A stretch of 64,000 nucleotides of DNA from a virus (taxonomy: Duplodnaviria > Caudoviricetes): the IMG/VR virus record IMGVR_UViG_3300024229_000651; one strand, 5' to 3'. The position numbers and the translations under genes were made by a program. Below the pieces are notes generated by a model, which worked only from the letters and a program-made list of their open reading frames with translations, did not search any database and was not told the DNA's origin. Shown in pieces: positions 21,504 through 55,513 of this stretch; within the stretch, counting starts at the first letter, position 1; every line of letters begins with the position of its first letter.

Positions 21504-21513
21504 TGTTAGTGCC

Positions 21514-22469: not shown

Positions 22470-22921
22470 TCCTCATAAGGAAAAACGATCCAATTGTTAT
22501 CCTCAAGTTCAATTTCTTCTGCATAATAGTCTACACCATCGAACGAACTTGATTGCTTGTTAAATATTGTAGCATATCTGATGTCAGAATACAAGCTATT
22601 ATTTTTATTAATAGCTTCAGATATACCAGACAGAGTGCTACCAGTGTCGTTGATATCATCGATAACAAGAATATCTGTGTTACTATGATTGCTTAAAATA
22701 CTTTGTAGTTGTTCAGCATCTTCGAAATCACCATCCCTTGTTTGCCAGTTGAATCCTTCGAACGGAACGTTTAAATAGTGACTGAGCATTACACCGGGTA
22801 TATATCCTCCTCTACCAGGCCCAATTACTACACCTGGATTAAACGAGTCCAAGGAAATCATACGCACCAAATCAGCAAGGTATGATTCTAAATCATCCCA
22901 TGTATAAAATTTCTTCATCAC
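22457..22921 (-). CDS. purine (xanthine-guanine-type) phosphoribosyltransferase
   Basis: YTWDD, VLVIDDINDTGST PRPP loop, WIVFPYE. Confidence 0.88.
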   Translation of the reverse strand: MMKKFYTWDDLESYLADLVRMISLDSFNPGVVIGPGRGGYIPGVMLSHYLNVPFEGFNWQTRDGDFEDAEQLQSILSNHSNTDILVIDDINDTGSTLSGISEAINKNNSLYSDIRYATIFNKQSSSFDGVDYYAEEIELEDNNWIVFPYEEWWK

Positions 22922-23901
22922 GTTTTCCTTTTAGATTTTGCAGATTGCCATTTGATCTCATCTCTGATAATATCTTCAATAGACATAGCAGGACTCCATC
23001 CTAATACTTTAGCGGCTTTGCTATTATCTGCAAAAGTACCTACCATATCACCCGGTCGCCTAGGCGTAATAGATGTATCAATCTCTGTGTCTAGTTCTTT
23101 TGCAACCAGATCAACAAGTTGTTTTGTGCTGACAGGATTGCTACTACCAATGTTTAATGTAGTTGAATCGCCACCGTCACTCAAGTAGTTAACAGCGGAT
23201 TGGAACGCTCTTGCAACGTCACTCACGTGGGTATAGTCACGAATGTTTGTTCCGTCTACAGTGTCGTAGTCGTCGCCGTTAATCTCAAACCCTTCGTTCT
23301 CCATAGCTTTTCGTGTAAGTATGGGAAGAACATGAACAAGCGGATCTTTTTGATAACCGTATCGGCCATTAGCACTGCCTGCAACATTAAACAGTCTCAA
23401 GTTAACAAAGTTAAAATCGTTTGCCGTTGCATAGTCTTGGATAATTTGCTCACAGATCATTTTTGATCTGCCATATGGATTGATTGGACTTAGGCTATCG
23501 TCTTCTTTGAACATACCATTGTCTTGTTGGCTTGTACCGTATACACTACTACTTGATGCAAATATAAAGTTCTTTACACCAGCGTCAGCGCAGTTATTAA
23601 GCAAGTTGATTGTTTGATAGACATTTTGTGTGTACGTGGTCGCCGGGTCCTTCATACTAGCTGGTACACTGTTATTTGCCGCTATATGAATAACTACATC
23701 AGGTTTAAGTAACTTTAATATACCGTTAACTTGTTTGTTATCAACCTCAAACGGGTATTGGGTTACACCTTCTAATGTGCGTTTGCTTTTATCAATGTTA
23801 ACAACATTGTATCCGCTGTCTGATAACAATCGACAAACGTTACTTCCAATAAAGCCGCTGCCTCCCGTTACAACCACAGATTTTTCTGTTATGTTATTCA
23901 C
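22918..23901 (-). CDS. galE: NAD-dependent nucleotide-sugar epimerase (GalE-like)
   Basis: VTGGSGFIG, SSSSVYG, YGRSK, RDYTHV; GTG start at 23901 with GAGGA RBS. Confidence 0.88.
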   Translation of the reverse strand: MNNITEKSVVVTGGSGFIGSNVCRLLSDSGYNVVNIDKSKRTLEGVTQYPFEVDNKQVNGILKLLKPDVVIHIAANNSVPASMKDPATTYTQNVYQTINLLNNCADAGVKNFIFASSSSVYGTSQQDNGMFKEDDSLSPINPYGRSKMICEQIIQDYATANDFNFVNLRLFNVAGSANGRYGYQKDPLVHVLPILTRKAMENEGFEINGDDYDTVDGTNIRDYTHVSDVARAFQSAVNYLSDGGDSTTLNIGSSNPVSTKQLVDLVAKELDTEIDTSITPRRPGDMVGTFADNSKAAKVLGWSPAMSIEDIIRDEIKWQSAKSKRKT

Positions 23902-24952
23902 TTGTGTGTCCTCTAATAATTGTGTACAGTTTCTCACCACTGAAAAACTCTTTTCTTAAATTGCTTTCCAAATCTTGTATTCGATTATCTCGTTCGTAAC
24001 TAGGAGTAAGAACTGCTTGTATGTATTCAACTATCTTATCCTTGTGGTTCAAATAGCTGTCCCAATCCTCTGTCCATGCACTTGGATATTTAAAGTAGTC
24101 ATCGTACATCTCTGTATAACTAAGTCTGTCTGGAACAATAGGTTGAGCACCTACAATGGCTCCTTCGTAACAACTGATGCCTAATGTTTCTTGTGTGTTA
24201 GCACTGAACACTGCTTTGGCTTTACCAAGTAGATCATGATACTCGTCTTTGGTTAGCGTTTGTTCCTGACAAACAATAAAGTCTGTGTCTGGAAAGCTGT
24301 TAGCTAAGTCTTTGAAAATATCAACTTGTTTTTCAGGTGCGACCCGATGAGGGAATAGTACAATATCTTCTTTGTCGGCAGAAGTATGTGTGTCTAATAA
24401 TCCCTTCATGTACTCCATTGGCCAACCCACTTTGTGAATTTTATTTAAATCCACATCTGGGAATGCCTCTAAAAATAATTCTATATGAAAGTCGGTAGCA
24501 TAAAAATTATCATCGAAGGCATTGAACATTGCAAGTTCTGTGTGTCTGCACCATGGAGCGTTACCTATCAGCCTTCCTAAAAAGTCTGCTGGGTCATAAC
24601 TACCGGCATGCCACATGCCTCCGATTTTAATTTTTACATCAAGTAATTCAGCCATATACTTTAATTGAAGAACTGTAGGGTTCCAAGCATCAGTGTATAA
24701 GAAGTAGTCTCCGTCTTGTACAGTACCGTCTGCAAACATCTGGCTAATTGTTTTCAGTTGCTCGCTTTTCCAGTAATTAGTTCCACTGAAGTTTAAAAAT
24801 GCTCCCGGAGTTGTGTCTTGAGGAGCATCAGCTGGTCCCTCTATAACATGTACCTCTAGCCCAGCATCACGCATTTGCTGAGGCAAATGCTTTTTCCACT
24901 GCGCAGTGTATCTTGTTTCTACAGGTTCTATTTCAACTAAGTATACTTTCAT
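23894..24952 (-). CDS. GT-B (GT4-like) glycosyltransferase
   Basis: FPHRVAPEK and QETLGISCYEG (E-x7-E) motifs. Confidence 0.75.
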   Translation of the reverse strand: MKVYLVEIEPVETRYTAQWKKHLPQQMRDAGLEVHVIEGPADAPQDTTPGAFLNFSGTNYWKSEQLKTISQMFADGTVQDGDYFLYTDAWNPTVLQLKYMAELLDVKIKIGGMWHAGSYDPADFLGRLIGNAPWCRHTELAMFNAFDDNFYATDFHIELFLEAFPDVDLNKIHKVGWPMEYMKGLLDTHTSADKEDIVLFPHRVAPEKQVDIFKDLANSFPDTDFIVCQEQTLTKDEYHDLLGKAKAVFSANTQETLGISCYEGAIVGAQPIVPDRLSYTEMYDDYFKYPSAWTEDWDSYLNHKDKIVEYIQAVLTPSYERDNRIQDLESNLRKEFFSGEKLYTIIRGHTSE

Positions 24953-24954
24953 AA

Positions 24955-25137
24955 TTACATGCTGTTCTTTTTATCTTGAATTTCTGCACGTCTAGTCTTA
25001 GCTAGTTTACCTAAATCGCCTAATGCTTTACGAGCACGAGCTGATGCAGCTTTCACACCCTTTGATTCGAATTTTTCACTCTCCTCTAAGTATGTTTCCA
25101 TTGCCGCTTTGATTTGTAAATGTGTTTCTGAACTCAT
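24955..25137 (-). CDS. histone H1-like Hc1-family DNA-binding protein
   Basis: KGVKAASARARKALGDLGKLAKTRRAEIQ signature. Confidence 0.8.
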   Translation of the reverse strand: MSSETHLQIKAAMETYLEESEKFESKGVKAASARARKALGDLGKLAKTRRAEIQDKKNSM

Positions 25138-25153
25138 AGTTCTCTCCTTAGTG

Positions 25154-26188
25154 TTATTCCGTATTTGATACGGATTCGATTATGGCACCATAATTTTTTT
25201 GATATTCCATTAGGGTGTCGTAATTATGTTGTAATATTTCTGCAGTTTCTAGTGAATACATATCGATATGCATTTGTTTAATGGACAGTCCTTTTAGCTG
25301 TTCCAGCACATGATTCATTCTCTTGTCGTCATCGAGCGAATCGTATCTTTCGTCAAATATGTGTGGGAAGGTTTTAAATCCCATTTTGCGTAACTCTTTC
25401 AATGAATTTTTATTACCGATAAGTAAGAAAGGTCTCTTATTATATATGCTTCGGAATATCTTCTCACTGAAAAATACTGGTTCCCAATGCGCTAATTGTG
25501 CACAATGAAACTGATCATGGAAATAAAATGTTTCAGGGACCAAGTCGAAGTAAGTTCTATCGTAAATATCAAAAAACTCTTTCCCTGGATCTTGAAAGGT
25601 TCTGCGCTCCATTACAGTTTTGTGTCCCTCAGCAGACTTTGGAACTTTGTCGTGAAACCATGGATGTAACTCTTCCTTAAAGTCGTTTATCCATGTCCAT
25701 TCGCAACTGTCAATGAGATTATTTTCGTAGATATAATTCATTGCTTCGATACGATGGTCTCTTGGCTCTCCGCACAAGTATGTGAATAACTTTTCTCTGT
25801 GGGTATTGTTTCGTAATACCTCATATTGTGCATGGTAATCAGTTGTGTTTGTGACAAGTACGGATGCCCAAATTGGATAGTATGCTACAGTTAGTCTACT
25901 ACTTGGGTTGTTTTCTTTGCACCACATATCGTATAGATCTTGGACATTAACATTACCCCACCATAGTGTTACTAAACTGGGGTCAACGGATGCAATACTG
26001 CACTGCTCGTATATAACAGTAAACAAGTCCATGCCACGAGAAGTGTGAGTAGATTGCCTATCCGGATCTATAAAAAGCCCGCCCTCAGTGATTAAGTCCA
26101 TTGAGATAGTCTCGCCAGCTGGCATCAGGGCTAACTCTTCGTGCAAAGTTTCGCCTGGGTAACCTGAATACAGCTGGATATGATTCAT
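25154..26188 (-). CDS. putative glycosyltransferase-like protein
   Basis: YFDLVPET...FFSEK...RPF C-terminal block resembles GT10-type motifs. Confidence 0.4.
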   Translation of the reverse strand: MNHIQLYSGYPGETLHEELALMPAGETISMDLITEGGLFIDPDRQSTHTSRGMDLFTVIYEQCSIASVDPSLVTLWWGNVNVQDLYDMWCKENNPSSRLTVAYYPIWASVLVTNTTDYHAQYEVLRNNTHREKLFTYLCGEPRDHRIEAMNYIYENNLIDSCEWTWINDFKEELHPWFHDKVPKSAEGHKTVMERRTFQDPGKEFFDIYDRTYFDLVPETFYFHDQFHCAQLAHWEPVFFSEKIFRSIYNKRPFLLIGNKNSLKELRKMGFKTFPHIFDERYDSLDDDKRMNHVLEQLKGLSIKQMHIDMYSLETAEILQHNYDTLMEYQKNYGAIIESVSNTE

Positions 26189-26556
26189 TCCTGATACTCT
26201 ATTTCACAACCATTTTCGTTGTCTTCTGCAACAGATATCTTTAGCCAGCGGTCTGGGTACTTGGCTTGTACATGCTCCGCTAAATCATCTGCGATCATTT
26301 CACAGCTCTTGTAATCCAACTGCAATGTGTCTTGTGTGTACAGTCTTTCCATCCAGCGTTTAAACTGAATAAACTCCACGTCTCTGTCATTGTGGAACAC
26401 TTCAAGCCAAACTTTAAAATGGAATATATGTCGGTGGGGATATCCTAAAAAAGATACGTCATCCCAATCGCCTGTTGCTAGATTGGGATCAGTATCAGCG
26501 CCTGGATACTTGTGTACACCTTCCTTTTGAAACGTTACCCAAATACTTCTCATCAA
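26185..26556 (-). CDS. QueD-like T-fold protein (DpdL candidate)
   Basis: LGYPHRHIF, RDVEFI, SCEMIA, EDNENG. Confidence 0.65.
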   Translation of the reverse strand: MMRSIWVTFQKEGVHKYPGADTDPNLATGDWDDVSFLGYPHRHIFHFKVWLEVFHNDRDVEFIQFKRWMERLYTQDTLQLDYKSCEMIADDLAEHVQAKYPDRWLKISVAEDNENGCEIEYQE

Positions 26557-26626
26557 TCGTCCTCAGTTTTTATTACTATCCAAACTACTAGTATACTAAA
26601 CAATATTCCTGCAAATGCATATTCCA

Positions 26627-27103
26627 TTACGCATCACTACCAAACGTATCGATATACTCTGCTAGGTCTTTGATGTCATCCTCTGACAACATACCTGCTT
26701 GCCCCCACATAAGTGCACTCTGTGCCCCTACTGTTTCTCCTGCTTTGTAACTACGTAAACGATCTACGATATATTCCACAGTCTGTCCTGCAAGCATGGG
26801 ACCAACTCCGCCTTGCCCACGTGCTCCGTGACAAGCACCACAAGAAGCATATTTTGCTTGCCCGGGCATAACATCAGCAGATGCTAATTGCACTCCGGCG
26901 CTTACAACATAGGCACTTGCTGACCCAGTAAAGTTTGCAGGTTCAGCAGATACGTGAACTACACCGAAGCCTTTGATTCTTTCTTCGATGCCTGCTAGTT
27001 GTTCTTTTGTAGTATCAGTACGTTTTGCTGCGAACACAGCTTGCTCGCCACAGCCGCCAATGAACAGTGTTGCTGCTAAGATTGTTGTTGTTAATAGTTT
27101 CAT
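26627..27103 (-). CDS. class I c-type cytochrome (c553/c4-like) with export signal
   Basis: CGACH heme motif, GPMLAGQ, distal Met (ALM); N-terminal signal/lipobox-like LFIGGC. Confidence 0.88.
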   Translation of the reverse strand: MKLLTTTILAATLFIGGCGEQAVFAAKRTDTTKEQLAGIEERIKGFGVVHVSAEPANFTGSASAYVVSAGVQLASADVMPGQAKYASCGACHGARGQGGVGPMLAGQTVEYIVDRLRSYKAGETVGAQSALMWGQAGMLSEDDIKDLAEYIDTFGSDA

Positions 27104-27333
27104 GTGTTATCTCCGTCAAAATATTTAACATCACTTTTATTAAAAGGTTTATTATCGTCGCCTTTGACCAAAGAAACTAGTCGGGCGATCTCGTCTTTAA
27201 CCTTGAGTTTGGTTTTCTTAAGAAAGTTTACTCGCATATCACCTTCATAGTTTTCACTTGCAAGCTCAATTTGACTATCAAGTCTTTTGTGTTTTGTTTT
27301 AAGAACTTCAATTCTATCTTTCATTGTAGTCAT
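27100..27333 (-). CDS. DUF465/YdcH-like protein
   Basis: LKTKHKRLDSQI...LKKTKLKVKDEI. Confidence 0.65.
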   Translation of the reverse strand: MTTMKDRIEVLKTKHKRLDSQIELASENYEGDMRVNFLKKTKLKVKDEIARLVSLVKGDDNKPFNKSDVKYFDGDNT

Positions 27334-27511
27334 CTTCTTCTCCTCCTAAGCACTTTCTGTCTTCAGGTTCAATTGGATTATCGTAATAATCGTGCGTTCC
27401 TGCTCTGTACCTTGCTTTCTTTTCGCTGACTAGAACACAACTCATATATGCCATCCATCCCATGCCCGCAAGAAAAATCAAACTGAATATAGTTTGTATT
27501 ACTTCAATCAT
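27314..27511 (-). CDS. small membrane protein
   Basis: N-terminal TM helix. Confidence 0.55.
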   Translation of the reverse strand: MIEVIQTIFSLIFLAGMGWMAYMSCVLVSEKKARYRAGTHDYYDNPIEPEDRKCLGGEEDDYNER

Positions 27512-27629
27512 CGGATAGCTCTGCCGTTGTGTTATAAAGACCTTTCATACTTTCGATAACTGCAATAATCTCTTCGACTTCGTCAGCATCATCTTTAGTA
27601 TCAATTTCTATTTCAATTTTAATTTTCAT
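27504..27629 (-). CDS. 41-aa acidic protein (not in ORF track)
   Basis: manual translation MKIKIEIEIDTKDDADEVEE...; TTGACT-17-TATAAT at 27636-27664 directly upstream. Confidence 0.5.
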   Translation of the reverse strand: MKIKIEIEIDTKDDADEVEEIIAVIESMKGLYNTTAELSDD

Positions 27630-27653
27630 AATAATATTATACTGTATATAGGA

Positions 27654-28100
27654 TCAATAGTCAACCATTTTATTTGGCGTATCACCCCTTTGCTCCCTCA
27701 AATTCACCTTTTCCAAACTAAGTTTATCCTTCAAACTCAATACATATGCACTCGCAGCAAGTATAGCAATACCTGTTGTTTCATAAAGTATAAATTCAGG
27801 CTCAGTTCCTTTAGTTGTTAATACAATCATTCTAGTCAGTGCTGTGATTGCAATAATGATAGGTAGTGTGACTGGTATTCTATGATCTTTATAAAATGCA
27901 CCAACCATACCTAATATTTCTGCGTAAATAAACAATAGGAATAAGTCGGCCAATGCCATCTTTCCGCTTGTTGTGAACATATGCAAAATATCAAACCCAG
28001 CTGCCCATACTGTACCTGCTACAATAAACAATAGCAATGCTTTTTCCATATGCATAATAATTCTATGGACAGAGTTCTTATATTTTCTACTGAATGACAT
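27654..28100 (-). CDS. psiE: phosphate-starvation-inducible PsiE-family membrane protein
   Basis: LADLFLLFIYAEI...IPVTLPIIIAITALTR. Confidence 0.85.
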   Translation of the reverse strand: MSFSRKYKNSVHRIIMHMEKALLLFIVAGTVWAAGFDILHMFTTSGKMALADLFLLFIYAEILGMVGAFYKDHRIPVTLPIIIAITALTRMIVLTTKGTEPEFILYETTGIAILAASAYVLSLKDKLSLEKVNLREQRGDTPNKMVDY

Positions 28101-28630
28101 TACTCTATTACCTCGTCGCCCACATATTCAGTCCAATCGGTGTACTTGGATCTGTCTTTGAGGTCGTGTAAACTGTGGCACCAAACACCTGTGTTTGTTC
28201 CTTTGAATGATTTATCATCTAGTTTGAGTGTTGTATTGTAGTTAAACAATTTGATATTCGGAAGTCGAACAGCAATCATAGGGATAAATTTATTGTAGTC
28301 AGTCCAGCCGTTATCGTGAAACCATTCGTGATTAGCATAGGAGCTGTCGAAATCAAGTGTGACCCATACATCAGCGTCTAACAGTTGCGTAATAATGTAA
28401 TCCCATTCTGCCCACGAGTTCGAATCATCTTGTGGCTGAAATGAGTCAGCACATCCTAAGTACACATGATCAATTTTGTTGTTTAGACATCTTGCTAAAA
28501 TCTCCTTAACATTTTGTCTACCAATAACAAACAACGTTTTTTTGCCATACAGAGGAGTATGCTCAACTTCAGTACCAATAAAGAACTTTGGATCGTCTCC
28601 AAAGTTGGTCCTACCTTCTACTGTTGCCAT
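28100..28630 (-). CDS. hypothetical protein in the dpdA operon
   Basis: 176 aa; overlaps both neighbours; GTEVEHTP...TLFV and GVWCH motifs. Confidence 0.7.
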   Translation of the reverse strand: MATVEGRTNFGDDPKFFIGTEVEHTPLYGKKTLFVIGRQNVKEILARCLNNKIDHVYLGCADSFQPQDDSNSWAEWDYIITQLLDADVWVTLDFDSSYANHEWFHDNGWTDYNKFIPMIAVRLPNIKLFNYNTTLKLDDKSFKGTNTGVWCHSLHDLKDRSKYTDWTEYVGDEVIE

Positions 28631-29508
28631 GTTAAATATGTCCTGTTCTTGTCTATGCTTGTTGTTCTGTTGTTAAATGCAGTACCGGCTTCTGTAGTAG
28701 GATACTCGGCGCCCCACATATCGTCAACGTTAATGATATTCTTTTGTACTAATAAGTTTGCCTTAACCATACTGTTATAAAACGTTTTTGTTCTCGGACT
28801 AGGAAAATCCGTTCTAATCGATTTCCATAGAAACGGAGCAAAGTCTACATCACCGTGCTTCTCTGCACACATTAAATAGTGACCATTGTTATTAAGTATG
28901 TCGGCAGTAAAATACTTTATATGACTCGACAAGTCGACAACTACATCATACTGATCAGATAGATTATGTTCTCGCCTAGCACCTTTATCATCCCACCAGT
29001 CAGAGTATGCTTTACCTGTTACTGTAACATTACGTAATCTGCTTTTGTTATTGTACTCTAACACTTCATATATTACTCTTGCTAAGAAGCCTGTGCCTAT
29101 CATTAGCAATGACCTATTACCTAATTTACCAATTATGTCTGCAATGTTTACAGCACATGCCACAGGCTCTAGTATATATTTAGGCATTGCCGCTGGAACA
29201 ACAACAAATTCTCCGTCTCTAACATTATAGTAGTCTGCAAATGCAGGCTCTCCTCTAGTGGCTACAATGTCGCCTACCTTTGCAGTACTTACATTTTTGC
29301 CAACAGACATAACTTCGCCTAGCCCTTCATGCCCGTGCATGTTATCAGGCAACATGTTCATGTCACCATTAAACATGGCTACGTCACTACTGCATATACC
29401 TGTGTATATAGACTTAACTACTATTTGGTCTTCGGTGTGTTCAGGTTTATCCCACTCGATATGAGATATTGTCTTATCGCTGTTCACTTTAATTAAATTA
29501 CATTTCAT
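28618..29508 (-). CDS. zinc-binding (MDR) dehydrogenase-like protein
   Basis: GICSSD, GHEGLGEV, GDIV, EPVAC. Confidence 0.85.
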   Translation of the reverse strand: MKCNLIKVNSDKTISHIEWDKPEHTEDQIVVKSIYTGICSSDVAMFNGDMNMLPDNMHGHEGLGEVMSVGKNVSTAKVGDIVATRGEPAFADYYNVRDGEFVVVPAAMPKYILEPVACAVNIADIIGKLGNRSLLMIGTGFLARVIYEVLEYNNKSRLRNVTVTGKAYSDWWDDKGARREHNLSDQYDVVVDLSSHIKYFTADILNNNGHYLMCAEKHGDVDFAPFLWKSIRTDFPSPRTKTFYNSMVKANLLVQKNIINVDDMWGAEYPTTEAGTAFNNRTTSIDKNRTYLTWQQ

Positions 29509-30379
29509 TTTCGTGGTACCTTTCTAGCTGACTATGTATCCATAGATCCATATCAATGTGGTCTTGGTAACTATCTTTCTCTGAACGTGCTATCATTCTT
29601 CCGTATGCGTCATTAGGGCATAACCCAAACCGCCATTCGTATGTGCTGTCTTCTGTGTATACTTTTACACTCTGATCATCAATGCCAGTCTTCCATCCTG
29701 CTTTTATTGTAACAGGCACATTGTTCCAAGTCCAATGCTCTTCGGCATAGTCACACACATCATATACACCTTCTGCATTTACATTACCGTAGTTTGTTGA
29801 TAATAATTCTTCTAGTTCCCACTGTCTTGTTTTAGTATGGCTCACAAAAGACATCTCTGTTAACGGAACAATTTTACTTAGGTTACAATATAAGTGTGGG
29901 AACAAATCTAAAGCCACTCCACCCCATGCAAGTTTTTTATTTGTGAACCAACTACCCGGACTAGGAACACGATTTGCATTCAACCATGATACTTCAATCT
30001 TGGTTGGTCTTATACTCTTATTCAACAGATCGTCTAGTGCGCCGTATGATGTTCGATATAGATTATTTTTACACATGATGTACTTTGTATCAGTGTATCT
30101 ATTCTGCAGGCGTGTTAATGCTTCCACACTGGGTAAACCAGGCTTTTCAATAAACACAGTTTTGCAATACATACCAACTTTTTCGGCAATAGGAAGGTGT
30201 GTAAAATTAGGCGTACAAATAACAGCAACATCAAATTCTCCACGAACATCGTCGACGTTGTTATAATTTGCTGTAACAACTTGCTGATCCACAGTTGTGA
30301 CTGTGTACCCTAACTGAGTTAACTCAGGTAAGTAAACGTTAGACCCTATACCCCCTAGACCAACAAGTAATGCTCTCAT
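29498..30379 (-). CDS. Gfo/Idh/MocA-family oxidoreductase
   Basis: VGLGGIG, ICTPNFTH, EKP, GGVALDLFPH. Confidence 0.85.
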   Translation of the reverse strand: MRALLVGLGGIGSNVYLPELTQLGYTVTTVDQQVVTANYNNVDDVRGEFDVAVICTPNFTHLPIAEKVGMYCKTVFIEKPGLPSVEALTRLQNRYTDTKYIMCKNNLYRTSYGALDDLLNKSIRPTKIEVSWLNANRVPSPGSWFTNKKLAWGGVALDLFPHLYCNLSKIVPLTEMSFVSHTKTRQWELEELLSTNYGNVNAEGVYDVCDYAEEHWTWNNVPVTIKAGWKTGIDDQSVKVYTEDSTYEWRFGLCPNDAYGRMIARSEKDSYQDHIDMDLWIHSQLERYHENEM

Positions 30380-31911
30380 AGTTCTCCTACTAGCTCTCCG
30401 AGTGCCTCTTCTTGAATAGCATCAAACTCTCCTTCGACTTGTTGCTCTACTTCCTCATCGAAGAACATACTAGCAGCACTAGTCTTAAATGCAGTATCAT
30501 GATCTTTGTGTTTGTTATTGCTAACGTCATTTAGGAATTCATGCGCATCATCTAACAATTGGTGAGGATTGTCGCTTTGGAATAACTCTTCAACAAACGT
30601 GTTAAACATCAGTAAGTTTCTAGGAGTGTATAAACTCTCTTGATTGAGTTTCTTACCCTTCTTCTGCCAGCTTCTCCAATCCAACTTGTAGTTTTCAAAC
30701 TCAATAGTTGCTAGACTATTTGCTTCCTGTACTGCTCTAATATGCATGTAAACATTGTGTGCCATCAGCATACCATACGTAAAACTATCCCAAGAAGTTT
30801 TACCTTCTTTGTTGATCTTGTTTAACATACCGGGAGCATACCAATTAACATCACCAGTTACAAGCCTACTACCAATCTCACTCTCCCACGGGAAAGGATT
30901 AGCAGACAAGTTACCAGGACTAAAGTGTGAGTTCGCTTTATTGTCGAAGCACTTCTCCATTATGTAACTCATTTGTTCACTGGTAATTTTATTACGTGTG
31001 TATACTAATCCATTAGCACTACTGATATATGGACTAGCACAATCAAAACTAACTGTGATGTTTGGATTAACATGCTCTCTGAGTTGTCGTTGCACACTTG
31101 TAAGCATAACTGCCCACTCTAGTTTACTTGTACCCAAGAAGTGAATCCAATCTCGATCCTGTAGTTTTTCATCATCACGTAAAGTAATGATACGTTTCAG
31201 TGCCATGTGCATGTCACGGATATTATTACCACCCATGCCCCAGCCTTCTGTGTCGTAGTCCTTAACTTTTTGATACCATTCTTCTGCATCTTCCCAATAG
31301 GTTCCTTGCAGTACATTCAAGAACTTTGTCTTGCCTTGTCTATGATCCATAAACCAATCTAAGTTGTATGCAGTACACTTCAAGCACTCATCAAAGTTCT
31401 GTAGTCCAGTCTTCTCTCTAAAGCCCGGCTTACATGCCCAGCTAGGAACATCAAACGTCATACTCCAGTCTGCTGTGTGTTCTAGCCAGTTAAGGATCTT
31501 GCCCCTAACTTTGTCAGCATCGCCTTTGTATCCAACATCGCCAGGCTTCTCAAAGAAGTTTTCCCAGTCAAACTTAATAACACCTTTACCAATCTGGAAA
31601 CCACCTGAATCCCCTACGATAGTTGTGTTAGCTCTGTCTCTATGTTGTATGATGTGTTCCATTACCTTACTCTTCTCTATGTCCAAGTAAGCATGTCCAG
31701 CACTATACAACCCTTTGTTATAGTAGTAGTAACCCTTCTCTTTGTCCAAGAAGTTCATGCCCTCAAAGCCATGTTCGAAGCCTTTGGGTACTCGACCGTC
31801 CGGAATATATCCATCCACACTGTTGCATCTGCCTAGTAGCTCTGTCATAAAGCCACTAATAGCTGGGAGGAAAGTTGCGTAATCGCTATGCTTGGAGGAT
31901 AGATCTCTCAT
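30376..31911 (-). CDS. dpdA: TGT-fold transglycosylase, probable DNA 7-deazaguanine insertase
   Basis: DSGGFQ, MTFDVP, NVLQG, GMGG, IHFLG, SFDCAS; queE/folE nearby. Confidence 0.8.
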   Translation of the reverse strand: MRDLSSKHSDYATFLPAISGFMTELLGRCNSVDGYIPDGRVPKGFEHGFEGMNFLDKEKGYYYYNKGLYSAGHAYLDIEKSKVMEHIIQHRDRANTTIVGDSGGFQIGKGVIKFDWENFFEKPGDVGYKGDADKVRGKILNWLEHTADWSMTFDVPSWACKPGFREKTGLQNFDECLKCTAYNLDWFMDHRQGKTKFLNVLQGTYWEDAEEWYQKVKDYDTEGWGMGGNNIRDMHMALKRIITLRDDEKLQDRDWIHFLGTSKLEWAVMLTSVQRQLREHVNPNITVSFDCASPYISSANGLVYTRNKITSEQMSYIMEKCFDNKANSHFSPGNLSANPFPWESEIGSRLVTGDVNWYAPGMLNKINKEGKTSWDSFTYGMLMAHNVYMHIRAVQEANSLATIEFENYKLDWRSWQKKGKKLNQESLYTPRNLLMFNTFVEELFQSDNPHQLLDDAHEFLNDVSNNKHKDHDTAFKTSAASMFFDEEVEQQVEGEFDAIQEEALGELVGEL

Positions 31912-41599: not shown

Positions 41600-43222
41600 T
41601 TAAAATAGGCAAATATCTGGGTGAGTTTGGATGCTAAACGCTGGAGATTGGGTACGTATTATATTGTGATTCAATTCGTGTAACTGACTCATCAGCCATC
41701 GGGTACGTTGGATTGTATTGGTGTTGTTGGTGGGAGGAGGTTGTTCCTCCTTTCCATCTAAGCAAAAGCAACCACCATCAGTGCCCAGCTGTACTGACTG
41801 CCCCGTTTCAGGAATTATGCACGTTGAATTAGGATCAGAGAATCTACCTGTAGATAAGTCTGCATAACTCATGATAGTTCCGTACCCACCGTACGTACCA
41901 GCATAGTTCGGATTGTCTGATTGTAAGTCAAACCCGGGAAGATTATATCCATAGGAGTGTTCGAACAGCCCGGGCGTATCAGTGTCATTCCATTCGTGTG
42001 CCGCACCAAGTAAGTGTCCTACTTCGTGTGCAAATGTTTCGTTCGCACGTTGATAGTAACGTGTACTCGCAGTTGATTTAAATTGACTGTTATGGTAGCA
42101 CTGTGTGATCCCCCGTGTTTTATCCAAGCCCCGACTAGCATCTAAACTGGCTACCCCACATGCAATAGCATCGCTGGGTTTTGCTTTAAACAAGAATGCC
42201 ATATCTGCATTGGCATCACGTTGCCAGTTATCTAATCCTTGAAACTCGTAACGTCCATTAAAGAATGCCGCATACTGCCTATACAAATCGCCTGGCTGTA
42301 CGTCAACAATTTTGATGTCAGCTACACGTAACAAAGTGTACACACCTGATATCATGTATATATGGTTAGCGTCAAAAAATTGTTTGTCCACAAACTCTTC
42401 TATGGTCATCCCGTCGAGTTGCTCATCGCTGATGTTGGAATCAAAAACTACTAGCATATCAATAACAGCTCTGCCTGCATCGGCTGTGACAGGCTGGTAA
42501 GGGAAGTTTACATCCGACTTTTGCAGTATACCATCGCATGTCATGTAGTTGTATCTGGTGTCAATTCCTGCAGAGAAATCTGTTGGGCATTCGTCTGGCT
42601 TCGCCATTTGTATAAAGCATGATTGATCAATGTGTACAACTCGATCAGTATAAGTTCCGCCCTCACCGTCAGCAAAGTCCTGTAACCTATCCTCAGACAA
42701 TAAGTGATTTATACTGTCCTTGTGCTGGTCAAATTCTTCCTGTGTAACAGTATTTGCGCAGTACGATTCTCCTATAGGAGTTCCTTCTTCTGGCTCTTCG
42801 CTGGCTCCGCAATCTGTAGATTCTGATTCTACAATCTCTGTGTACACACCTCCAATGCCGTTAGCGAAGTCCTGTACTTTATCATGCTGTCTTAGTTGCG
42901 TAAGAATAGCAAGGAGAGTGTTAAACACTGTTTGTGTTTTGTTTGCGCAGTATGCACTGCCAATTGGAGTGCCGTATTGGGGAGGATCTTCGTAGCCGCA
43001 TGCCTCTGAATTCTCAGTCTGCGTTTCCGTTGATCCGCCTAGCCCATCGGCAATTACTTCTATAAGAGTTGTATCGGAACAGCGTTGTTCGAGTACTGTG
43101 CCTTGTGAGGGGTTATTGGGAGTTGTTGCTACTACTGTGGGAGGCGTAGCTTCTTCAGTAGAACTTGAGCCTCCACAGCTAGATAGAATCAGAATGGTTG
43201 AGATTAAAATTGCGTGTTTCAT
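41600..43222 (-). CDS. lipoprotein metzincin (reprolysin/M12B-like) metalloprotease
   Basis: lipobox LSSC; HEVGHLLGAAH; Met-turn TIMSY; three N-terminal Cys repeats. Confidence 0.85.
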   Translation of the reverse strand: MKHAILISTILILSSCGGSSSTEEATPPTVVATTPNNPSQGTVLEQRCSDTTLIEVIADGLGGSTETQTENSEACGYEDPPQYGTPIGSAYCANKTQTVFNTLLAILTQLRQHDKVQDFANGIGGVYTEIVESESTDCGASEEPEEGTPIGESYCANTVTQEEFDQHKDSINHLLSEDRLQDFADGEGGTYTDRVVHIDQSCFIQMAKPDECPTDFSAGIDTRYNYMTCDGILQKSDVNFPYQPVTADAGRAVIDMLVVFDSNISDEQLDGMTIEEFVDKQFFDANHIYMISGVYTLLRVADIKIVDVQPGDLYRQYAAFFNGRYEFQGLDNWQRDANADMAFLFKAKPSDAIACGVASLDASRGLDKTRGITQCYHNSQFKSTASTRYYQRANETFAHEVGHLLGAAHEWNDTDTPGLFEHSYGYNLPGFDLQSDNPNYAGTYGGYGTIMSYADLSTGRFSDPNSTCIIPETGQSVQLGTDGGCFCLDGKEEQPPPTNNTNTIQRTRWLMSQLHELNHNIIRTQSPAFSIQTHPDICLF

Positions 43223-45298: not shown

Positions 45299-46033
45299 TT
45301 ATTTAAAGCTGATACTTTCTTGGTACTTTGCTTCGTTATCTAGCACTACAGCTGATACAAAACCGCCCTTGCCACCACCAGTATCGGTAAAAATGGCTGT
45401 GCCGCCTTGCACATTCTTGTTAACACTTACCTTTGTTATGTTCTTATCAAAGGTAGGTATTGTTTCAAATGGGCTTCGATCGTGCCCTACAACAACTGTC
45501 TTGTCTTCGGGTATTCCTAAAGTCCAATCATATAATCTGCTGGGATACTCTTGCCCTCGCAACATTATTTTTTTAGTTCTGTCTGGATTTATTTCTCCAT
45601 ATAAGAACCCACGCTGAGTTTTTTTAGTATCTTTCTCACCTTCCCAAAACTCAGGTAGTACTGCCCCGTGAGTCAAAACAGTGTTGCTTATTTCAACGTA
45701 AGGCACCATGTTAGCATACAAACTAAAGAATGCATCCTTGACTACTGGATCTTCTAATGCGCTGATAGTTGTATCCATAGCCGGCGGGTACAGTTTAACA
45801 TCGTTGCCCTGGGCCCACCGGTAAATTTTGTTGTCATGGTTACCTTCAACAAATAAAGCCTTGCCTGTTTCTGCTAGGTACGAAGCAAACAATATAGTAT
45901 TAGCTGGATCAGGGCCATAATCCACAATGTCACCAAGGAAGATTGGCGTTGCCCGTAGCTCAACACTCTTGTTATATGCCGCTAACAAGGACCTATAATC
46001 GTTATGTACGTCACTGATCGCTAAATAAGTCAT
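45299..46033 (-). CDS. calcineurin-like metallophosphoesterase
   Basis: SDVH, GDIVDYG, GNHD, THG, GHD. Confidence 0.92.
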   Translation of the reverse strand: MTYLAISDVHNDYRSLLAAYNKSVELRATPIFLGDIVDYGPDPANTILFASYLAETGKALFVEGNHDNKIYRWAQGNDVKLYPPAMDTTISALEDPVVKDAFFSLYANMVPYVEISNTVLTHGAVLPEFWEGEKDTKKTQRGFLYGEINPDRTKKIMLRGQEYPSRLYDWTLGIPEDKTVVVGHDRSPFETIPTFDKNITKVSVNKNVQGGTAIFTDTGGGKGGFVSAVVLDNEAKYQESISFK

Positions 46034-46059: not shown

Positions 46060-46088
46060 ATTATACTGAAAACCACAAGTAAAGTCAA
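46060..46088 (-). promoter_or_regulatory. sigma70-type promoter
   Basis: TTGACT-17-TATAAT. Confidence 0.8.
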
Positions 46089-46091
46089 GAA

Positions 46092-47162
46092 TTAATATGA
46101 TTCTAGGGTGCCTTCTCGCACTAAATCACAGCTCACACAGTGAGGTCCGCCAGCTAATGTACGCATATGACGCATTCTAACGGGCACTGCGTTGACTCCG
46201 TGTTTCTCTATTTCACGTATCAAACCCACTTCTTCTTGGGGCACTATGACGCTGTCAGGGCTTATACTGAGCACATTCATGCCTATCCATTCACTTGCAG
46301 GAGCATAGTCTTCCAAGCAGGGCTGTCCCACGCACATTTCTTCAGTGTACCAGATTTTATCCCAGTCCTTAAAGATAGATGGGATCTTGTCCTTATCGAC
46401 TCTACTAGCATTAAGTATTACCAGACCAGGACGCAAAGGCATAATAGTGCTATCAACGTGAGCCCAACTGTATAAGTCGTGCATTTCGTGAACCCTAAAC
46501 TGTGGGCCGAGCGTGTTACGAAGCCATTGAGCTCCTTTAGCATTTCCTGTATTAGATATAAGATAAAGGATGTCATAGCCGCACCTAATTAAGTTTGCTG
46601 GATCGAGTATAGGCTCATTGTTGTTTACACTTGGGTCTCTGCCTGGTTGCAGTTTAAACAAATTATCTTGCAACATAGGTTTAGGCATAGGTAACCAACG
46701 AGCACCCTGCATCATCTTGTCCTGAAATAACTGATTGAACAAGAACGTTTCGTGATAGCGAGCCCTAAGACTCATAGCACCCTCGATAATTGCGTCACCT
46801 ATTACTGTGACACTATCCCTGGGGCAGTATGCTTCATATTGATCAGACTGCCATAATCCATTGGAAACGTTACTAGCGAAGTCTACGGCAGTCATGTCGG
46901 GTCTGTGAACTTTAACACCTTCCCCTTCTAACACATCTATCATGCCTGCTAAGTCTTCTTCAGCTTCTTCGTATACGTGAGCAGGATATCTGCCCTTGGG
47001 TACGTTAGCATACTCTTCTGGAGTAAGATTTGCATAATTAGTAGCATGGTGGCTTAGATCACCGTGAGGTATATTTGCACCAGTTGCTGTACCAATTATA
47101 ATTTCTTTTAACGGATCCCATTCATTGGGAGACCATATAGGTTTAGTTTGATTCATGTACAA
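46092..47162 (-). CDS. amidinotransferase (glycine/inosamine-phosphate amidinotransferase family)
   Basis: NEWDPLKEIIIG, CPRD, DPAN, HVDST, GGPHC (Asp-His-Cys triad). Confidence 0.88.
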   Translation of the reverse strand: MYMNQTKPIWSPNEWDPLKEIIIGTATGANIPHGDLSHHATNYANLTPEEYANVPKGRYPAHVYEEAEEDLAGMIDVLEGEGVKVHRPDMTAVDFASNVSNGLWQSDQYEAYCPRDSVTVIGDAIIEGAMSLRARYHETFLFNQLFQDKMMQGARWLPMPKPMLQDNLFKLQPGRDPSVNNNEPILDPANLIRCGYDILYLISNTGNAKGAQWLRNTLGPQFRVHEMHDLYSWAHVDSTIMPLRPGLVILNASRVDKDKIPSIFKDWDKIWYTEEMCVGQPCLEDYAPASEWIGMNVLSISPDSVIVPQEEVGLIREIEKHGVNAVPVRMRHMRTLAGGPHCVSCDLVREGTLESY

Positions 47163-47436
47163 TATTTATAGAATGGATTGGTGGTTGGCTTACAGTATCT
47201 GAACCGTTTGAGTACTGATTTGCTAAGTGTGCATCCTCTAGGCTTTCGAAGTATAAAATATATCCTTCACCGTGCACAATGCAACACCACTGACAAATAG
47301 CAGATTGTTCTAAGTGTCGAACCACATCGGGATCATCTGTATAAAATTTGTTAGAAAGCATACTTGCTAATTTCTCTGTGCCTTTTAACAATACAATTTC
47401 ATCTTCGGTTAGTCTGTTAAATCTTCTAAATGTCAT
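47143..47436 (-). CDS. hypothetical protein
   Basis: 97 aa, overlaps both neighbours. Confidence 0.65.
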   Translation of the reverse strand: MTFRRFNRLTEDEIVLLKGTEKLASMLSNKFYTDDPDVVRHLEQSAICQWCCIVHGEGYILYFESLEDAHLANQYSNGSDTVSQPPIHSINIVHESN

Positions 47437-48014
47437 CGTTTTACTAATACCTGTCTTTCGCTAAGTTGTTCAAGGGTTAGATTATTTGAGGATACAAATT
47501 CATTTACAGCCTGCATAACTTCAGGCCATGCATCATCGCAATCATCAAATACTATGATCCCATCCTTCTTTAAATACTTGAGTGCAAACTTTGCATCGTT
47601 AAGCACACTCAGGTATCTGTGAGTTCCGTCGATGTATACCATGTCGTACATAATCTGCAGATGTTTCATTACTGCAATGCCGTACTGGTTATAGTATCTT
47701 ATCTTGGGGAACGATTTTAATCGATTGTCAGCATATTCATCTATGCCTTGCTTGGGGTCTATACCTGCTGTATGTATAAAACTCTCAGGATGCTTACATA
47801 TATGGGTGTTCATCCACTCTGCACTAGATCCTATGCCTGTCCCTATCTCCATGATAATAACAGGCTGTGTAGTATCCAAATGTGCGCCTATGATCTTTTC
47901 CTTCCATACTTCCGCATGGGAGGAGTCGCCGAAGTACTCATATTGCTTCAGCAACTCCTCCAAAGACAACTGGGTGTCTTGTGAAAATATCAAATCATCT
48001 GGCTTAAATTCCAC
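47433..48014 (-). CDS. class I SAM methyltransferase (Methyltransf_24-like)
   Basis: MEIGTGIGSS, YIDGTH, IVFDD. Confidence 0.85.
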   Translation of the reverse strand: MEFKPDDLIFSQDTQLSLEELLKQYEYFGDSSHAEVWKEKIIGAHLDTTQPVIIMEIGTGIGSSAEWMNTHICKHPESFIHTAGIDPKQGIDEYADNRLKSFPKIRYYNQYGIAVMKHLQIMYDMVYIDGTHRYLSVLNDAKFALKYLKKDGIIVFDDCDDAWPEVMQAVNEFVSSNNLTLEQLSERQVLVKR

Positions 48015-49349
48015 TTACGCAGCATCTCTCTCGTAAGGAACAGTTATACCGAAAGGTGCTTCTGGTACTTTGTTACCAAAGCCACCTCCGTGTACAATAA
48101 ACAGCGTATCACAGTAGCTCTCATCTCCCCAACTGTTCCAAGGGTAACCGTCTGTGAACATGATAAACTTCTTGGGTTGAATACCTTGCTCTTTCATGTA
48201 ATCGAAACAGCAATCAAAGTCAGTGCCACCGCCTCCAGCTGTTTCGTAATCCATAAACTCTTCCATGTTGTGCTCAGTGAACACTTGCGGATTGTGTACT
48301 TCTGTGTCAAAGCAGAACAAGTGAATTTTAAAGTCACTGTATTGATCCATACAGCCCTTAACCTCACTGAGTATGTCTCTGCACATAGCATCAGTCATTG
48401 AACCTGACGTGTCAATACCAATAGCAACATCGATCGTTTGTTCACGATCCATTCCAGGTAACCAAATACCTTGGTCCATACCTTTTCTACTGGGACGGCT
48501 AAACGTGTAGTCACTTCTAATAATACTTTGAATTTGCTGTGGTAACAATTCTTTCCAGCTGAGTTGTGGATTAACAAGTGAATCGATCAGTCGCTTGATT
48601 CCTTTGGGAGTATTGGCAGCGCCAGAACTTTTTGCTGCTTGGATCGTTGCGTTCTTAAACTTCTCACGAATTTCACGCTTTTGATCAGCAGTGTATTTTT
48701 CTGGGCCTTGCCCTTCTTTACCTTCAGCATCTTTGTTACCATTGCTCGGAGCACCAGCGCCTTCGTCATCAGATGAGTCGTCCATGTCCAAGTGAACATC
48801 TAATGTAGACATGTCAATGACTCTGCCTTCCTCCTCCGCTTGTTTGAACAAGTCGTCATACACCTCGTCTGAAGTATAGTCTCTATATTTCCAGTCAAAG
48901 CAGATGTCAACTAACTTAATTTTCTCACCAACCTTACCTTCTACTAGATCCATGTTAACCACATAGTCATTGGCAACATTCCATAGGATAGGGTTGCGGT
49001 CACCACGTCGACCCATATGGTCATAAACACAGTGCTCTACTTCATGACCCCATAAGAACACCAGTTCCTGATTGCTCAGTGCGGCAACAAAGTTGCGGTT
49101 GTAATAAAAGTATCTGCCATCAGTAGCGGCTGTGGGGCACCAGTCGGTAGCGTCTCTAATGTCTAACTGACATGCTAGATTACCGTAGAACGGAGTGTGC
49201 AGAAGCATACTGATTCTTGCTGTTATTAGTTTGTCTTCAATCTCCGCGGTAGTCAGCGTTGTTTCTGGAATGGCTTCTAACGCCTTGTGGGCAGTATCAT
49301 TGGGTGTCCCGGATATTTTGGGGGATTTAGCGTGTACTATATCGGCCAT
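48015..49349 (-). CDS. DUF2201-type metallopeptidase-like + vWA domain protein
   Basis: TAATDG, HEVEH (HExxH), IDTSGS, GGGTDF, FTDG. Confidence 0.88.
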   Translation of the reverse strand: MADIVHAKSPKISGTPNDTAHKALEAIPETTLTTAEIEDKLITARISMLLHTPFYGNLACQLDIRDATDWCPTAATDGRYFYYNRNFVAALSNQELVFLWGHEVEHCVYDHMGRRGDRNPILWNVANDYVVNMDLVEGKVGEKIKLVDICFDWKYRDYTSDEVYDDLFKQAEEEGRVIDMSTLDVHLDMDDSSDDEGAGAPSNGNKDAEGKEGQGPEKYTADQKREIREKFKNATIQAAKSSGAANTPKGIKRLIDSLVNPQLSWKELLPQQIQSIIRSDYTFSRPSRKGMDQGIWLPGMDREQTIDVAIGIDTSGSMTDAMCRDILSEVKGCMDQYSDFKIHLFCFDTEVHNPQVFTEHNMEEFMDYETAGGGGTDFDCCFDYMKEQGIQPKKFIMFTDGYPWNSWGDESYCDTLFIVHGGGFGNKVPEAPFGITVPYERDAA

Positions 49350-50633: not shown

Positions 50634-50661
50634 ATTATACTTCTTTACAGCCTAAAGTCAA
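50634..50661 (-). promoter_or_regulatory. sigma70-type promoter
   Basis: TTGACT-16-TATAAT. Confidence 0.75.
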
Positions 50662-54756: not shown

Positions 54757-54784
54757 ATTATATATGACATTGTACGAATGTCAA
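54757..54784 (-). promoter_or_regulatory. sigma70-type promoter
   Basis: TTGACA-16-TATAAT upstream of tRNA-Trp. Confidence 0.7.
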
Positions 54785-55416
54785 GTTTTTATTTTAGTAA
54801 AAACACGCCAATCATACTTCGCAAGCGGAATTTCTGTATAGTCATATCTAGGTACAATGTTATCGCATACAAAATTCACAGCCGCAATAGTAGATTCTTC
54901 CTGTGACATTCTGGGATAAATGGTACTATAATCACATGGTAAGTCTCTTTGAGCATTCCAATTGGTATCATCGAAAATTATCATTCCGCCTGGGGCTGTG
55001 AGCTTGTCAACTAAAGTAAAGGCTAATGCGCTAGTTGGGAAGTCGTGTCCACCATCAATATAACATAAATCGTATATTGGTGTACTATTCTGCTCAACCA
55101 ACTTACCCAACTCCCACAAGAAACATTTCTCCGCTCTTGTAATTGTTACTAGCTCTTGTAAATCAAGTTTAGATAGTACTTGATCTATATTAGGCTTTAC
55201 TAGATTAGTTTTACGATCAAAGGTGTGGACTTTGCCAAAACCTTGTTCTTTAAGTATAGAGGCAAAGTATGCTGTGCCTTTACCGTGATAGAAACCTAGT
55301 TCACAGATACTCGAGTACTCGTTATCCATTATAACATCACGCAACCATGCAGCTTGCTCGTGCGACATATAACTTAAATTTTCGTACTCTTGTGTTACAG
55401 TATCTATTAGTGACAC
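54781..55416 (-). CDS. class I SAM methyltransferase (Methyltransf_24-like)
   Basis: ELGFYHGKG, YIDGGH, IIFDD; GTG start with AGAGGAG RBS. Confidence 0.85.
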   Translation of the reverse strand: MSLIDTVTQEYENLSYMSHEQAAWLRDVIMDNEYSSICELGFYHGKGTAYFASILKEQGFGKVHTFDRKTNLVKPNIDQVLSKLDLQELVTITRAEKCFLWELGKLVEQNSTPIYDLCYIDGGHDFPTSALAFTLVDKLTAPGGMIIFDDTNWNAQRDLPCDYSTIYPRMSQEESTIAAVNFVCDNIVPRYDYTEIPLAKYDWRVFTKIKT

Positions 55417-55436
55417 AGTATCTCCTCTAACTAATA

Positions 55437-55513
55437 TGGTGGGCCCAGTAGGACTTGAACCTACGACCAATCGATTATGAGTCGAGTGCTCTGACCAACT
55501 GAGCTATGGGCCC
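55437..55513 (-). tRNA. tRNA with CAT anticodon (probably Ile2; Met not excluded)
   Basis: GGGCCCATAGCTCAGTTGG...CT-CAT-AA...GGGCCCACCA; no C1 mismatch, so not an initiator. Confidence 0.9.

Follow-up and report, generated by a model that had tools for sequence, protein, structure and literature searches.

A StrB1-type amidinotransferase in a marine jumbo phage and the question of its acceptor

What does a bacteriophage do with an enzyme that takes the amidino group from arginine and hands it to another amine? The question is raised by a gene at positions 46092..47162 (minus strand) of a 64,000-nucleotide stretch of Caudoviricetes DNA, IMG/VR record IMGVR_UViG_3300024229_000651, which we refer to at its full length as the window. 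The window corresponds to positions 25549-89548 of the 339,794-bp genome of an uncultured marine jumbo phage (G000; CheckV completeness 91%), and nearly all of its genes lie on the minus strand. The gene encodes an amidinotransferase of the StrB1/AGAT family, and its sequence marks it as a real, resident and constrained gene of this phage. Which amine would the enzyme modify, and would it act with other phage enzymes or by itself? Our preferred answer, which we hold with roughly even confidence, is that it would guanidinylate an intermediate of the amino-sugar or cyclitol type, with arginine as the donor.

An amidinotransferase of the StrB1 family

Read from a TTG at 47162, the gene is an uninterrupted open reading frame (ORF) encoding 356 amino acids. 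The ATG at 47154-47156, two codons inside that frame, is the likelier start because an identical database protein (P0001, 100%) is 354 amino acids long. In a phmmer search of PDB sequences, the protein matched StrB1 (1bwd) over its full length with an E value of 4.3e-87 (query residues 12-356 against chain residues 7-346, three short gaps) and with an identity of about 41%, as counted from that alignment; HsvA (5wpi, 2.6e-54), SxtG (6u1r, 8.7e-53) and human AGAT (1jdw, 2e-46) were also matched over their full length. Residues D108, D179, H227, D229, R246, S280 and C332 of StrB1 align to D116, D187, H235, D237, R254, S290 and C342 of the phage protein, and six of these seven are invariant in an alignment (A1) of 25 family members from phages and bacteria, with D187 kept in at least 90%. 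The preliminary description of this DNA had noted an intact Asp-His-Cys triad and had placed the protein in the glycine/inosamine-phosphate amidinotransferase family, apart from archaeosine synthases; D116, H235 and C342 do align to the catalytic residues of StrB1, and both the family assignment and the distinction from archaeosine synthases are borne out.

The family works by covalent catalysis, in which the amidino group is carried on a cysteine and ornithine is released. By this precedent, the phage protein is predicted to be an L-arginine-dependent amidinotransferase with a ping-pong mechanism, in which Cys342 (TGT codon at 46137..46139, invariant in A1) would take the amidino group from arginine and ornithine would leave, after which the amidino group would pass to a primary amine. 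His235 and the aspartates would assist; the codons of His235-Val-Asp237 lie at 46452..46460, just after those of a flap, DLYSWA, and the codons of Asp116 and Asp187 lie at 46815..46817 and 46602-46604, respectively. Arg254 (46401-46403) and Ser290 (46293-46295) are the counterparts of StrB1 R246 and S280, which, following the AGAT literature, we take to bind the carboxylate end of the arginine donor. All of these codons are on the minus strand and were located by alignment.

Could the protein instead be a hydrolase of the same superfamily, of the arginine deiminase or dimethylarginine dimethylaminohydrolase type, rather than a transferase? Its sole Pfam and NCBIfam matches are indeed to "arginine deiminase" models; however, these matches involve the C-terminal ~55 residues alone and reach 28 bits in NCBIfam against a cut-off of 414, whereas the whole protein aligns to four solved transamidinases with E values from 1e-46 to 1e-87. 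The library matches reflect the common superfamily, the library models cover the amidinotransferase family poorly, and we find a hydrolase barely credible.

By several measures drawn from sequence comparison, the gene stands far beyond chance: its E value to StrB1 (4e-87), at least 210 related database proteins at E <= 1e-20, and the lowest nonsynonymous divergence (dN, 0.135-0.157) among the local genes, dN being the measure of constraint used in view of synonymous divergence that is saturated for the amidinotransferase and for part of the neighboring genes. In one related locus (L001), the amidinotransferase is still 82% identical, while the backbone AAA and DUF2201 genes are down to 52%. 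The gene has the G+C content of the genome, in which it is present as one copy.

Where does the protein fall among its relatives? A megablast search of the region against the phage collection gave no match. In both of our trees (a 175-sequence FastTree and a 62-sequence IQ-TREE), the window protein falls with good support into a clade of 21-23 sequences of viral and metagenomic origin, 68-94% identical to it, and this clade stands apart from the main phage clade (37-41% identity), from the clade of the cyanophage S-SCSM2R, from the Campylobacter phage proteins (23-27% identity) and from the actinobacterial StrB1 clade. The sister of the window clade is a clade from bacterial metagenome-assembled genomes (MAGs) of Planctomycetota, Lentisphaerota, Kiritimatiellota and Binatia, with an SH-aLRT support of 89 that is not decisive. 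Orthology to StrB1 itself was ruled out, as the sequences from Streptomyces griseocarneus and S. rameus group elsewhere in the trees. Nor do the partners of streptidine synthesis (inositol dehydrogenase, StsC-type aminotransferase, kinase, phosphatase) stand beside the phage gene, whose neighbors encode a DUF2201 protein, a methyltransferase, a 97-residue protein and a PrpE-like phosphoesterase.

The flap offers a further clue. In AGAT, AmtA and CyrA, the flap before the catalytic histidine fixes acceptor specificity (PMC4887976). In the window clade and in every sugar- or radical S-adenosylmethionine (SAM)-associated clade, this flap reads Y-S-[W/F/Y]-[A/M]-H, and small residues occupy that flap site in the StrB1, diaminopropionate (Dap), cyanobacterial and ornithine decarboxylase (OrnDC) clades. 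The common flap type lends modest support to a similar type of acceptor in the window clade and in the sugar- and radical SAM-associated clades.

Partner genes in phages and bacteria

If the acceptor is to be sought through the company that the gene keeps, other phage clades are a good place to start; the co-occurrence counts that follow come from related genomes and are thus not independent of one another. Among 47 informative IMG/VR loci from these clades, a gene of 300 codons, c1, lies at most two genes upstream of the amidinotransferase in 46, mostly overlapping, and a radical SAM gene lies within four genes in 37. The usual cassette order is radical SAM (c2)-c3-c1-amidinotransferase, and c2 just attains the curated cut-off of the NCBIfam model NF033640 (N_Twi_rSAM). 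For c1, there was no family match, and a profile search against PDB sequences returned nothing significant (best E 0.02). Its AlphaFold (AF2) model (pLDDT 80.8), in turn, is matched by Foldseek with a probability of 1.0 to HisC, to an aromatic aminotransferase and to CobD, and the c1 alignment contains an invariant lysine in SLSK and an invariant aspartate in DCAY; on this modeled fold, c1 is a fold-type I pyridoxal phosphate (PLP) aminotransferase-like protein. For c3, we have a weak lead to small Asp/Arg-hydroxylase-type oxygenases. Further recurrent neighbors of the cassette are a "sporadic carbohydrate cluster" 2-oxoglutarate (2OG) oxygenase, SAM synthetase and UDP-glucose dehydrogenase.

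Does the window phage have these partners? Its genome carries a tailoring island at G000 1-17 kb and 327-340 kb, 68 kb from the amidinotransferase. A c1 homologue lies there at G000 3524-4510; it is 33-37% identical, keeps the invariant lysine and aspartate, and has a borderline score to Pfam Aminotran_1_2. It is flanked by a 2OG oxygenase gene and by the first of about nine N_Twi radical SAM genes (10 NF033640 matches), and the island also encodes a UDP-sugar dehydrogenase, a methyltransferase, a desaturase-like protein and a carbamoyltransferase. The slot right after c1, which holds the amidinotransferase in related phages, holds a radical SAM gene in G000. Elsewhere, the amidinotransferase and c1 are both missing from six complete related genomes (G006-G009, G013 and G014); G016 carries the two in a cluster, and in G024, a 28%-complete fragment, the amidinotransferase is present and c1 is not. 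The amidinotransferase and c1 are thus best read as an optional add-on to the island, not as part of its core. Because the window gene was inserted singly after the other genes of a DUF2201 transcription unit, its product would act in trans with the island.

The G024 fragment deserves a remark of its own. At 28-29 kb and 96-102 kb of this 110-kb viral record (locus L368), there are at least four ORFs of the amidinotransferase family, the best with an E value of 6.6e-61; three of the ORFs cluster within 7 kb, and the record has one N_Twi radical SAM gene and no c1.

Bacterial homologues are found in sugar-type surroundings as well. In Pseudobdellovibrionaceae, the amidinotransferase gene is followed by genes for a UDP-sugar dehydrogenase, an epimerase/dehydratase, a DegT aminotransferase and a GT2 glycosyltransferase. 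Within the sister clade of the window clade, the gene stands beside a DegT aminotransferase gene in one locus (L065), between two radical SAM genes with a GT9 gene nearby in another (L101; L074 is similar, its downstream flank being seen), and near genes for an APH-like kinase, a Zn-dependent alcohol dehydrogenase (ADH), a 4,6-dehydratase and an ArnT-like transferase in a third (L063). The commonest context among 80 bacterial genome loci is of a different kind: genes for an SbnA-like PALP protein, an SbnB-like cyclodeaminase, the amidinotransferase, a nonribosomal peptide synthetase (NRPS)-like protein, a phosphopantetheinyl transferase and an S41 peptidase. The SbnA- and SbnB-like neighbors indicate diaminopropionate as the acceptor in that operon, which probably makes a guanidino-diaminopropionate unit; we know of no described product for it. 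About 30 genomes, from Alphaproteobacteria, Acidobacteriota, Verrucomicrobiota and Halieaceae, have this operon (L066-L139, e.g. L094:1-8000); its NRPS-like protein is of a 1,440-residue A-T-hexapeptide type, and its SbnB-like protein is an ornithine cyclodeaminase.

Taken with the enzyme's predicted reaction, the aminotransferase, radical SAM and glycosyltransferase neighbors favor the arginine-derived guanidinylation of an amino-sugar, as the preliminary description had already suggested. We hypothesize that the acceptor would be an amino group borne by an intermediate of the sugar or cyclitol type, and that this amine would be made by the island's c1 PLP aminotransferase-like enzyme together with its N_Twi-type radical SAM enzymes. 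Radical SAM, 2OG or dehydrogenase enzymes could provide the oxidation step before transamination. Such a route would follow the logic of oxidation, transamination and amidination, as in streptidine synthesis, and its product would bear a guanidino group.

Local setting and competing acceptors

How is the gene embedded locally? In the order of transcription, all on the minus strand, the region begins with an AAA_5 ATPase gene (50596-49505), followed by genes for a DUF2201 metallopeptidase-like and VWA-like protein (48015..49349; assigned by library match and synteny), a Methyltransf_24 methyltransferase (47433..48014; PF13578, E 1.7e-13) and a 97-residue ORF (ORF97, 47143..47436), whose stop overlaps the amidinotransferase start; ORF97 is 43-51% identical in relatives and gave no match in Pfam or PHROG. 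Beyond the amidinotransferase lies a gene for a calcineurin-like (PrpE/ApaH-like) metallophosphoesterase (45299..46033), a neighbor in all members of the window clade. A consensus scan identified a sigma-70-like promoter (TTGACT-N16-TATAAT, 49409-49382) after a strong terminator-like GC-rich hairpin (49443-49426) ahead of the DUF2201 gene, another promoter-like site ahead of the AAA gene (50634-50661), and one (TTGACT-N17-TATAAT, 46060..46088) in the 58-nt gap past the amidinotransferase stop. The three sites are near-identical, with 11 of 12 consensus matches, and each lies right before a gene start. As pattern matches, they look like a host-type early promoter family. If these promoters are real, the arrangement suggests that the amidinotransferase closes a DUF2201-methyltransferase-ORF97-amidinotransferase unit, of which the DUF2201 gene is the first, and that the phosphoesterase opens the next.

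Two of these neighbors were considered as partners and ruled out. The methyltransferase is not a GAMT-like partner; it belongs to Methyltransf_24, and a gene at this position is found in the window alone and in none of the 17 close relatives compared. The phosphoesterase is not a StrO-like partner; it has a promoter-like site of its own and is present together with ORF97 in two sibling contigs, L231 and L232, that have no amidinotransferase. Single-sequence pattern scans for the phosphoesterase, and for the Gfo/Idh/MocA gene discussed below, gave no match in viral contigs. Two further features of the window may be recorded here: the methyltransferase gene has a paralogue at 54781-55470, it being the copy at 47433-48014 that was inserted in the amidinotransferase operon in the window alone, and a 540-residue protein encoded at 41600-43222 has a reprolysin-like (M12B) zinc metallopeptidase domain, which is unusual in a phage.

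Synteny shows in which relatives the gene is present or absent. The order AAA-DUF2201-ORF97-amidinotransferase-phosphoesterase-w45.0-w44.3 is common to 17 loci (gene calls in the loci are longest-ORF calls, so that overlap lengths are approximate). In L231 and L232, whose DUF2201 proteins are 72% identical, ORF97 is followed directly by the phosphoesterase, and there is no amidinotransferase on these 49-54 kb contigs, which are 10-32% complete; in more distant relatives, both ORF97 and the phosphoesterase are absent. These loci therefore differ by the gain or loss of one gene, the amidinotransferase, and ORF97 and the phosphoesterase are independent of it. In two members of the window clade, L147 and L226, a radical SAM gene of 394-407 codons stands between ORF97 and the amidinotransferase and overlaps the amidinotransferase start by 4 nt; its product has a CxxxCxxC motif and is 30% identical to those of the N_Twi radical SAM genes of G000 (E 1e-44 to 1e-49).

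Several of these observations weigh against a sugar- or cyclitol-type acceptor supplied by the island. The gene lies far from the island and without a biosynthetic neighbor, and the link in trans is drawn from co-occurrence in a few related genomes. As no copy lies on the L231 and L232 contigs, the gene is probably dispensable and may be a "moron", an accessory gene that works without partners. Conversely, c1 occurs without the amidinotransferase in L352 (16632-18313) and L356 (17270-18951), where it is followed directly by a GTP cyclohydrolase I gene and where the remaining 2-3 kb of the locus hold no amidinotransferase, and radical SAM arrays of 9-12 genes occur without either the amidinotransferase or c1 (G013 and others). 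The N_Twi radical SAM partners may be compatible with a peptide substrate, too. Finally, homologues that are about 42-44% identical to the window protein, and thus as close to it as StrB1, belong to the Dap/NRPS-type operon. Reading off the acceptor from similarity to StrB1 was accordingly ruled out; equally similar homologues, those of the SbnA/SbnB-like and NRPS-like operon, would use other types of amine, and an identity of 42-47% therefore does not define the acceptor.

What, then, if the enzyme works alone? As a stand-alone auxiliary metabolic gene product, it would amidinate a free host metabolite independently of the radical SAM island; glycine (to give guanidinoacetate), lysine (homoarginine), diaminopropionate, or putrescine and spermidine (guanidino-polyamines) are candidate acceptors, and nitrogen handling, DNA condensation or a small bioactive molecule are conceivable roles. 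HsvA, one of the solved relatives matched above, prefers polyamines, and homologues 42-44% identical to the window protein occur in the Dap/NRPS-type operon or beside Orn/DAP decarboxylase genes. The single-gene insertion or deletion between conserved neighbors and the fact that most members of the clade have no partner gene point the same way, as do the flexibility of the family in acceptor choice (PMC4887976) and the reported presence of the creatine-pathway methyltransferase GAMT in ocean viruses (PMC11360552), given that a methyltransferase is predicted to be co-transcribed here. This methyltransferase, however, is of another type than GAMT and is missing from the close relatives compared, no polyamine or Dap genes were seen nearby, and the radical SAM gene of L147 and L226 is translationally coupled to the amidinotransferase. 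By flap and tree, moreover, the enzyme falls among the clades associated with sugar or radical SAM genes and away from the Dap, OrnDC and AGAT types, and we consider a stand-alone role unlikely, if worth keeping in mind. The radical SAM partners themselves could be taken to indicate peptide or protein tailoring, in which a ribosomal peptide or a virion protein would have the side chains of its ornithines or lysines converted, giving arginine- or homoarginine-type residues; these recurrent partners have SPASM/twitch domains, and many of their relatives mature peptides. To our knowledge, however, no StrB1/AGAT-family enzyme acts on peptides, and the other partners are of a sugar type (UDP-sugar dehydrogenases, 4,6-dehydratase/epimerases, DegT aminotransferases, glycosyltransferases, a carbamoyltransferase). 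An aminotransferase directly upstream also implies the conversion of a keto group to the acceptor amine, which is small-molecule logic, and peptide tailoring seems to us very unlikely.

A different connection, to DNA modification, is suggested by other genes of the window. The preliminary description had proposed a link between the amidinotransferase and the oxidoreductases at 28.6-30.4 kb, and had listed preQ1 as an acceptor to be considered. Co-occurrence speaks against the former. The Gfo/Idh/MocA gene (29498-30379), 16 kb from the amidinotransferase, has at least 310 viral relatives, and in the best 80 viral loci a DpdA3-like gene is adjacent in 78, an ADH-like gene is likewise adjacent in 78, and an amidinotransferase lies within 10 kb in three. 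Among 15 large Gfo-positive records, two have an amidinotransferase, and neither of the two rated 100% complete does; the Gfo gene is also present in the amidinotransferase-less siblings L231 and L232. The Gfo/ADH pair belongs with the DpdA3-like and deazaguanine genes, not with the amidinotransferase. As for preQ1, no QueF was found in G000, where the sole match is a T-fold cross-match inside FolE, and hence there would be no phage-made preQ1 amine; this acceptor was set aside as unlikely.

Might the amidinotransferase nonetheless be part of a 7-deazaguanine DNA-hypermodification system, with an amine of the modified base or of an attached sugar as its acceptor? In some 15-30 IMG/VR loci, the radical SAM-c3-c1-amidinotransferase cassette lies between a DpdA3-like/epimerase block and a phosphoribosyltransferase/FolE/QueE block. 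In L001 and L002, the window-type gene is about 8 kb downstream of FolE and QueE, and among five complete genomes, Gfo and the amidinotransferase are found together in G000 alone. Every Campylobacter phage record with an amidinotransferase is of Firehammervirus size, and the DNA of one such phage, CP220, is fully dADG-substituted (PMC10516641), which we count in favor. Against this, the DpdA3-like gene occurs in four complete genomes without the amidinotransferase, as does Gfo in two complete genomes and in the siblings, and Gfo and ADH keep to the DpdA3-like gene while the amidinotransferase seldom accompanies them. The absence of QueF also counts against it, many cassettes (L018, L020, L030, L036, L043-48) are not close to deazaguanine genes, and the bacterial and cyanophage contexts indicate glycan-type chemistry. 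We therefore regard membership in a deazaguanine system as decidedly unlikely. A long shot, but an attractive one, is that a guanidino group is placed on a sugar that decorates 7-deazaguanine-substituted DNA, giving a positively charged guanidino-glycosylated purine, a hypermodification that has not been described so far. The amidinotransferase cassette would then be an optional final tailoring step, which would account for its frequent place inside the deazaguanine block of related phages.

The deazaguanine block itself occupies positions 19817-31911 of the window and encodes a QueE-like radical SAM protein, a GTP cyclohydrolase I, a small phosphoribosyltransferase, an NAD epimerase/dehydratase, a 511-residue DpdA3-like protein, and the Gfo/Idh/MocA and ADH-like proteins; no Pfam TGT match was found in it. 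QueD is encoded at a distance (G000 151014-151394), and there is a weak QueC-like match at G000 113990-114166. Among the genes of the block, at 26627-28100, are those for a cytochrome c domain protein (158 residues) and a PsiE-family phosphate-starvation-inducible membrane protein (148 residues).

Relation to known systems

Annotations of phage amidinotransferases go back to 2010 (PMC2853527), with a further one in 2025 (PMC12801897), and by itself the window contributes another copy, in an odd place, of an enzyme type that had been annotated before. The gene type is widespread, with at least 58 IMG/VR loci, 114 confirmed metagenome stretches, Campylobacter phages and one cultured cyanophage among its holders; in the literature searched, we found no characterized phage amidinotransferase. 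What is specific here is a distinct amidinotransferase clade whose gene, inserted singly, stands apart from the island. Should the acceptor be an amino sugar, these phages would make guanidino-bearing glycans, a chemistry known mainly from aminoglycoside antibiotics, and a fixed positive charge would be placed on whatever the island decorates, be it the host envelope, the virion or DNA. We are encouraged that the amidinotransferase is the sole island-related enzyme with a predictable and easily assayed type of reaction, and that it therefore provides a practical way into the island.

Two cultured phage systems with homologues, CP220/CPt10 and S-SCSM2R, invite comparison. The Campylobacter phages CP220 and CPt10 carry a "glycine amidinotransferase" and a radical SAM module (Timms et al. 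2010, PMC2853527). Their amidinotransferase gene lies in a module of five radical SAM genes after the baseplate genes, with a PAP2 phosphatase gene nearby; the CP220 module includes two annotated glycosyltransferase-like domain proteins, and none is listed in the CPt10 stretch. Like the marine jumbo-phage cassettes, these modules belong to large T4-like phages and have the amidinotransferase family in common with the window, but the window protein is 23-27% identical to the Campylobacter proteins and 37-41% to the marine cassette clade, and its gene, unlike those of the CP220/CPt10-type module, stands outside the radical SAM island and has no radical SAM gene in its operon. In the Synechococcus cyanophage S-SCSM2R, ORF309 ("inosamine amidinotransferase", PMC12801897) is StrB1-like and 38% identical to the window protein, and it is set among five glycosyltransferase genes, a radical SAM gene, 2OG oxygenase genes and an aminotransferase-like gene. 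It belongs to a different clade from that of the window, one that is sister to the Pseudobdellovibrionaceae gene; its authors interpreted it as an antibiotic-synthesis gene (PMC12801897). The same phage has a second "glycine amidinotransferase", ORF266, which was found in the purified virion proteome (PMC12801897); a tblastn search with the window protein gave one match site in PQ898602.1 and did not reach ORF266, which is too distant.

Among cellular proteins, the closest relatives are those of the PVC and Binatia MAGs ("inosamine-phosphate amidinotransferase 1"), which are 44-48% identical to the window protein and share with it the motifs GGPHC...DLVRE and the aromatic flap residue. Their genes stand, unlike the window gene, beside DegT aminotransferase, dehydratase, kinase, GT9 or radical SAM genes. 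The solved enzyme most like the window protein is StrB1 (1bwd), the L-arginine:scyllo-inosamine-4-phosphate amidinotransferase of Streptomyces griseus, which resembles it in fold, in length, and in its catalytic and arginine-binding residues; neither has the insertions that HsvA, SxtG and AGAT have after query residue ~170. StrB1 is bacterial and its flap reads LYtSTH, whereas the window enzyme is phage-encoded and its flap reads DLYSWAH. The pathway logic that we propose for the phage would nevertheless be that of StrB1: an amine made by an aminotransferase and then amidinated.

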